Notes under the pieces: model-generated
Told to the model about the DNA's origin: nothing
The model's input: only the letters and a program-made list of their open reading frames with translations
Databases searched by the model: none
Made by a program: the position numbers and the translations under genes
IMG/VR virus record: IMGVR_UViG_2675903606_000001
DNA length: 7,125 nt
Source: a virus
Lineage: Monodnaviria; Loebvirae; Hofneiviricota; Faserviricetes; Tubulavirales; Inoviridae
Strand: one strand, 5' to 3'
Shown: positions 2,420 through 2,476 of the stretch, piece after piece
How the letters are laid out: the number at the start of each line of letters is the position of its first letter
How positions within the stretch are numbered: the first letter of the stretch is position 1

Positions 2420-2476
2420 ATGCTCAGTTCTGACAATTTAAACATTGCAAATGTATTGACTGTCAGATCTGAGCAT
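2420..2476. promoter_or_regulatory. 16-bp inverted repeat in the repressor/gII divergent intergenic region (candidate operator and/or origin element)
   Basis: ATGCTCAGTTCTGACA (2420-2435) and TGTCAGATCTGAGCAT (2461-2476) are reverse complements with one mismatch, separated by 25 bp; the right arm lies in the spacer of the candidate gII promoter. Confidence 0.4.

Follow-up and report, generated by a model that had tools for sequence, protein, structure and literature searches.

Candidate operators of an XRE-type repressor in an exchangeable cassette upstream of gII in a dif-integrated filamentous prophage of Escherichia coli

The stretch of DNA analysed here, 7125 bp in its whole length (hereafter the window), is a filamentous prophage of Escherichia coli of the Ypf-phi/CUS-1 type, integrated at dif. 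Its sequence is 99.8% identical to that found in E. coli SCPM-O-B-12142, in which a 9078-bp unit is present as two tandem copies at dif, adjoining hipBA. The minus strand carries ORFs of 374 aa, 140 aa (membrane) and 148 aa, the last of which (1928-2374) encodes an HTH protein, and the plus strand carries gII (2546-3598), followed by gV, the coat genes, gIII, gVI and gI. The 148-aa protein is a repressor of the XRE family (Pfam HTH_3, E = 1.4e-9) that shares 99% identity with its counterpart in Ypf-phi of Yersinia pestis (the YPO2273 homologue) and is devoid of the Peptidase_S24 self-cleavage domain; YPO2273 is named in a review as an RstR homologue (PMC4266046). Its gene is divergent from gII, which encodes the replication initiator (Pfam Phage_CRI and G2P_X_C) and is the proposed target of repression.

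Compared with Ypf-phi/CUS-1-like contigs, the module for regulation and replication shows about 90% identity. The repressor and the intergenic stretch together share 94% identity with the CUS-1-like prophage of UTI89, the intergenic region alone is about 97% identical to it, and that of Ypf-phi is near-identical to that of UTI89. The gene content of the phage is mosaic: the genes for replication and regulation belong to the Ypf-phi/CUS-1 type, and those for structure and assembly (3936-7125 in the window; 3936-8460 in the L001 unit) have no DNA-level relation to Ypf-phi/CUS-1, with a gene I that is 77% identical to that of Lineavirus I2-2. Beside the repressor, the minus-strand ORFs 190-1314 and 1407-1829 correspond to phrog_17621 and phrog_4174, without a Pfam match; the 140-aa product is predicted to be a membrane protein, and its ORF is also retained in the type-D phages described below. 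Just past the repressor stop, a hairpin with 13-nt arms (92%) at 1872-1900 is followed by a T-rich run on the minus strand; it lies within an 80-bp block (1838-1917) common to type-A and type-B phages (see below) and is probably the repressor terminator, at the left edge of the cassette. A scan of the whole window at the Rfam gathering threshold gave no match.

At the other side of these ORFs, at 86-118, an imperfect, attP-like dif site marks the junction of the two tandem prophage copies and reads GGTGCGCATAATGTA and then CGACTCGTTATGTTGAAAAGG (L001 11085-11117; also at L001 2007 and 20163). The left chromosomal junction is the same hybrid dif and the right one is a perfect dif, GGTGCGCATAATGTATATTATGTTAAAT, a layout in keeping with the XerCD-mediated integration known from Ypf-phi. 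Two 24-nt arms (105-128 and 141-164, 88%; L001 11105-11164) form an inverted repeat around a GC-rich terminator-like hairpin (121-152), in overlap with the XerD-side arm of the dif-like site; in the second of them (141-164) the TTATGTTGAAA arm recurs as an inverted, diverged copy. Furthermore, a stem GTTGAC...GTCAAC at 35-53, in the conserved attP-proximal segment, is replaced by GTTGAT...ATCAAC in a prophage of Erwinia psidii (L006); this change is compensatory and hints at a structured element, either an origin or an attP accessory. The same Erwinia match has a truncated repressor beside dif and is uninformative on operators.

A single sigma-70-like match was found on the plus strand of 1800-2700, namely TTGACT (2456-2461) and TACATT (2479-2484) separated by 17 bp, with 9/12 matches, and it is the predicted promoter of gII (2456-2484). 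On the minus strand the standard scan returned no promoter for the repressor gene. Candidates obtained by relaxing the scan reached 8/12 only (for example TTGTCA at 2436 with GACTAT, a –10 that is lost in the related haplotypes L043 and L044) and were set aside; a TGnTAAGAT-like element at 2395-2387, which would give a near-leaderless mRNA, is a speculative repressor promoter. A second promoter at TTGACA (2515-2520) was also discarded, having no usable –10, and no LexA box (CTGT-N8-ACAG, at most one mismatch) is present in the intergenic region (2375-2545).

This region contains the imperfect 16-bp inverted repeat that an earlier note on this DNA had pointed out. The left arm, ATGCTCAGTTCTGACA, lies at 2420-2435 and the right arm, TGTCAGATCTGAGCAT, at 2461-2476, with 25 bp between them; the arms are indeed complementary at 15/16 positions, the mismatch being T2428 against T2468. 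The position given there for the right arm, between the –35 and the –10 of the gII promoter, is also borne out, as this arm occupies the 17-bp spacer. No other inverted repeat in the window (7125 bp) has arms of 16 nt, one mismatch or none and a loop no longer than 60; about 0.009 such repeats are expected per window, and 8/1000 random windows generated with a first-order Markov model contain one. A repeat finder extended the arms to 27 nt (2420-2446 and 2450-2476; 81% complementary, with a 3-nt loop), and the middle of the resulting 57-bp dyad is a central palindrome, ACATT-GCA-AATGT (2442-2454), two pairs of which are broken in haplotype L043.

The two arms belong to a larger array. In fact, the word TGCTCA-N4-TGAC occurs in three exact copies in the window, at 2421 (plus strand), 2475 (minus strand) and 2499 (plus strand), and in a fourth copy with one mismatch at 2358 (plus strand), all four within 155 bp around the predicted gII promoter. 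When one mismatch is allowed, these 4 matches (2358-2512) compare with 0.33 expected, and 0/200 shuffles reach 4; in a de novo test in which the word was not presupposed, 18/2000 random intergenic regions contained any 10-base gapped word three times. No further copy was found elsewhere in the 9-kb phage or in the 29 kb of L001. The left arm (2420-2435, plus strand; ATGCTCAGTTCTGACA, with the core TGCTCA-GTTC-TGAC at 2421-2434) lies 46 bp from the repressor start codon and is proposed as operator OL; the right arm (2461-2476), which reads ATGCTCAGATCTGACA on the minus strand and contains GATC, is proposed as OM. The third copy (2498-2513, plus strand; CTGCTCACAAATGACT, an exact match with its core at 2499-2512), missed by the earlier note, is located downstream of the –10 and across the expected start of the gII transcript, and is proposed as OR. 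The weaker fourth copy (2357-2372, plus strand), TGCTCA-TTGT-TGCC, is tentative: it overlaps codons 2-6 of the repressor, and its conservation is uninformative because it lies inside a coding sequence. From the middle site, the centre-to-centre spacing is 41 bp to the upstream mirrored site and 37 bp to the downstream one.

The consensus TGCTCA-N4-TGAC(A) is a pseudo-dyad in which the half-sites TG(C)TCA and TGTCA, read towards the centre, differ by one extra base on one side; owing to this asymmetry, two oppositely oriented copies read as a 16-bp inverted repeat. The dyad symmetry of each site is weak (TCA-N4-TGA plus asymmetric flanks), which would be unusual for a simple HTH dimer and counts against an operator function. 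The N4 spacer of the middle proposed operator also holds a Dam site, GATC (2466-2469), within AGATCT (2465-2470).

The array was then compared among relatives with the same repressor (type A), which provide 7 distinct intergenic haplotypes in the alignment. The specified motif positions of the three intergenic sites are variable in 1/30 columns, the N4 positions in 5/12, the remaining intergenic columns in 39/129 (motif columns against this remainder, Fisher p = 8e-4) and both promoter hexamers in 0/12. In the left arm the TGCTCA and TGAC blocks are invariant in the 7 haplotypes and the only variable position is 2427, in the N4; in the right arm variation is confined to the N4 positions 2468-2469; in the third site it affects the N4 positions 2505 and 2508, plus a T>C change at 2499 in one haplotype. 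All differences between the two arms fall within the N4: with each arm read 5' to 3' on the plus strand, positions 8-9 of the left and right arm are GT and AT in the window (arm match 15/16), TT and AT in Ypf-phi (14/16), TT and AA in L039 (15/16) and CT and AG in L044 (16/16). Judged from this alignment, two conserved blocks around a free spacer are the pattern expected of a protein-binding site. The sites are present in every type-A locus, with one site degraded in two loci and the third copy in nearly all, and the word TGCTCA-N4-TGAC is absent from all loci of the other immunity types.

These other types were recognised among the IMG/VR contigs in which the gII protein is 87-100% identical to that of the window, and which fall into four classes by their upstream region. 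Type A includes the window, Ypf-phi and CUS-1 (gII 90-100%; XRE protein of 148 aa; TGCTCA-N4-TGAC). In type B (L026, L031 and L032; gII 95-96%) the XRE protein is 43% identical and the word is GwACA-N5-GTsAC, in three copies, one of them inverted. Type C (E. coli 7CC and L042; gII 95%) has an XRE protein that is 76% identical and the word GACA-N4-TGTC, with an inverted pair flanking TTGACA-17-TAGCAT, and type D (L046-L058; gII 87-89%) has an unrelated 60-aa protein and TGAACTC repeats. In a more distant homologue, type E, TGACAC-N6-GTGTCA occurs twice, flanking TTGATT-18-TAACAT, and in an inovirus of Vibrio cyclitrophicus AGAGACACAAT and ATTGTGTCTCT flank TTGATC-17-TATATT. Thus, types B, C and E and the Vibrio inovirus all have type-specific repeats around the predicted promoter of the replication gene, which is flanked by inverted copies in C, E and Vibrio. 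Each type's word is restricted to its own intergenic region, although the words of types B-F were derived from the same sequences in which they were then counted. Types B and C have comparable gII promoters at the same place, and the three types look akin in their promoter core, where a –35 of the TTGA type and a –10 that reads TACATT or TAGCAT enclose a spacer with AGATCT; the AGATCT of the type-A spacer is lost in haplotypes L039 and L044.

The limits of the exchanged segment are sharp. When the whole phage unit was compared by blastn with a type-B phage, homology was found at 1-180, 1838-1917, 2546-3935 and 8462-9176; the gap upstream of gII is exactly 1918-2545, and homology resumes at the gII ATG (2546). 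The interval 1918-2545, which comprises the repressor gene and the intergenic region with its repeats, is thus delimited as an exchangeable immunity cassette, and phages with gII proteins 87-96% identical have unrelated regulators and intergenic regions in its place. At least six interchangeable immunity cassettes can be recognised in this slot upstream of the replication gene (1918-2545 compared with L032, L042/L003, L048, L092-L095 and L097), five of them with an XRE-type repressor, each with its own word; the 60-aa protein of the type-D cassette, unrelated to these and accompanied by the TGAACTC repeats, is phrog_2503 and has no Pfam match. The recognition-helix region of the repressor follows the same partition: the type-A repressors (92-100% identical) all have GISVSTLVRIASGKTEPK without variation, with GINVRTLVRIATAKTEPK in type C and GINIGTLKRIANAQRDAK in type B. 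In particular, the type-C repressor, 76% identical overall, carries S38N, S40R, S47T and G48A in this region and is found with a different word, GACA-N4-TGTC. On these comparisons the repeat travels with the repressor and not with gII, which supports operators and disfavours a plus-strand origin. Since the repressor is the only protein of the exchangeable cassette, a repeat that is cassette-specific, centred on the promoter and conserved in blocks would be best explained as its operators.

Other explanations have been weighed against the same data. The alternative put forward in the earlier note, that the repeat belongs to the plus-strand origin and that the gII protein would recognise it, by nicking or by binding, has some basis, as this protein falls into the Pfam families of Ff G2P, the origin of the Ff phages lies just upstream of gII, and a 13-mer at 2399 resembles the Ff nick core with 2 mismatches. 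However, this 13-mer is outside the repeat, the resemblance fails when extended past 13 nt (7/19 mismatches), and neither L044 nor types B-D retain it; within the repeat itself the nick-site core has no match. Moreover, the non-coding DNA inherited together with gII is located elsewhere (unit coordinates 8462-9176, 1-180 and 1838-1917). The origin did not hold up, because type-B phages, whose gII is nearly identical (95-96%), lack the repeat and show no similarity anywhere in the intergenic region; we regard it as extremely improbable. Binding of a host regulator rather than the phage repressor, such as RovA in Yersinia, SlyA in E. coli or a nucleoid protein, is unlikely, even though the review on Ypf-phi reports RovA on the putative YPO2274 promoter region and derepression of phage genes without RovA (PMC4266046), so that other proteins also act there in Y. 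pestis. Within one host species, sites for a host factor should stay constant whatever the repressor allele of the phage, but the repeats of prophages that occupy one and the same dif locus in E. coli differ along with their regulators; the region lacks a LexA box, and the SlyA/RovA consensus, compared by eye, gave no convincing match. RovA could additionally bind the AT-rich centre of the dyad, but, judged from the distribution of the repeats, binding of a host factor cannot explain allele-specific words.

A structural role of the 57-nt imperfect palindrome was also considered, as a hairpin in the packaged plus strand or a cruciform in the replicative form, acting as minus-strand origin, packaging signal or single-stranded DNA promoter. 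In Ff phages intergenic hairpins serve as packaging signal and origins, and the palindrome of the window would be stable as single-stranded DNA (–15.3 kcal/mol, z = –4.08; z = –3.97 for the fold of the 150-nt region of type A); furthermore, in haplotype L044 both arms carry changes that make the stem perfect (16/16). The equivalent regions of types B and D have no comparable fold despite their common replication genes (z = 0.13 and 0.42, respectively); that of type C, which in 7CC and L003 also has structural genes in common with the phage of the window, gives z = –2.63. Covariation is uninformative, because 14/15 outer pairs are the same throughout and the remaining one, which does vary, is unpaired in 5/7 haplotypes. 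Within the inner stem the two pairs broken in L043 are not compensated, and the left arm varies at 5/11 positions against 1/11 in the right one. Finally, the third copy (2499-2512) lies outside the hairpin and would be left unexplained, and a larger hairpin-rich non-coding region, conserved with gII, is present between gIV and the dif-like site. A conserved single-stranded DNA hairpin is thus not supported by the comparison, and a structural function of this kind is quite improbable. A combination of the two ideas, in which the mirrored arms would pair in the packaged plus strand into one double-stranded operator, within a 57-nt hairpin that also holds the –35, so that repressor or RNA polymerase could act on the incoming single-stranded genome before the complementary strand is made, is compatible with the stability of the hairpin and with the change on both arms in L044, and the GATC in the arm spacer might add Dam-methylation sensing to it; this is very unlikely, because the fold is absent from types B and D.

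The reading that we favour, with a probability of about 0.75, is that both arms are two of three, possibly four, operators of the prophage's own XRE-type repressor. The proposal of the earlier note, an operator pair for this repressor acting on divergent promoters, is therewith retained in part: the repeat is confined to the repressor-gII region, its motif bases are conserved and it is swapped with the repressor allele, but the sites form an array of three or possibly four instead of a pair. As to the divergent promoters, that of gII was found, but no convincing promoter of the repressor gene, so that this part of the proposal is only half shown. Repressor bound at the middle site (2461-2476) would exclude RNA polymerase from the gII promoter and would thereby silence gII, gV and the virion genes that follow them, keeping the dif-integrated prophage quiet and blocking an incoming phage of the same type. 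The flanking sites would probably contribute cooperative binding or a roadblock, and the upstream one may autoregulate the repressor gene; the spacings of 41 and 37 bp exceed those of classic lambdoid operators and make cooperativity a conjecture. Repressor binding, cooperativity, autoregulation and the start of gII transcription at these sites are what we infer from the DNA sequence. The proposed mechanism matches the partial protection from superinfection given by a resident Ypf-phi and the presence of YPO2273 in the place of CTX-phi rstR (PMC4266046), as well as the three RstR sites described for the equivalent region of CTX-phi (PMC4762005, Fig. 4 legend). In the 2014 review on Ypf-phi the role of the regulator was still awaiting experimental demonstration (PMC4266046).

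Among known systems, the region most likely resembles the rstR/ig-2 immunity region of CTX-phi of Vibrio cholerae, another filamentous phage integrated at dif, in which an HTH repressor is divergent from a replication gene of the Phage_CRI type and a compact intergenic region holds three repressor sites, described for RstR there (PMC4762005) and predicted here. According to Kimsey and Waldor (1998), CTX-phi variants that are otherwise alike reportedly differ in the repressor and the intergenic region jointly. LexA is a co-repressor in CTX-phi, whereas the LexA box is absent here; in addition, tblastn detected no sequence similarity to CTX-phi and gave only inoviruses of Vibrio cyclitrophicus at 46%, in a phage collection that may lack CTX-phi. 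More loosely, the region resembles the lambdoid OR (lambda, 434 and P22), with which it shares three partially symmetric operators, divergent genes, recognition-helix specificity and exchangeable immunity regions. However, the sites are 37-41 bp apart from centre to centre here and adjacent in lambdoid phages, one of them is inside the promoter spacer, their symmetry is weaker and the repressor is without the Peptidase_S24 domain. Like the hairpins of the Ff phages (f1/M13), the palindrome studied here is imperfect and belongs to the non-coding DNA that precedes gII in a filamentous phage; unlike them, it coincides in part with a promoter, its covariation is uninformative, and its conservation follows neither gII nor the morphogenesis genes.

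The closest relatives, Ypf-phi of Y. pestis and CUS-1 of E. coli O18:K1:H7, have the same element in the YPO2273-YPO2274 intergenic region, with identical right arm, third site and promoter hexamers. They differ by G2427T in the left arm, and therefore the repeat is 14/16 there; the phage of the window differs from them also in its I2-2-like structural module. For the intergenic region of Ypf-phi the published account goes no further than a presumed part in initiating transcription (PMC4266046), and no description of the operators of Ypf-phi or CUS-1 was found in the literature searched. The switch outlined here is of a familiar design and involves no new mechanism; what is new is that it concerns a previously unmapped switch in a phage family of E. 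coli and the plague bacillus. The cassette is present in 122/5426 complete E. coli genomes, and prophages of the Ypf-phi/CUS-1 type occupy dif in Y. pestis and in many extra-intestinal pathogenic E. coli and have been linked to virulence. With an operator consensus, a defined cassette (1918-2545) and natural heteroimmune variants at hand, the proposed switch is directly testable, and the cassettes offer a simple means of typing these prophages.
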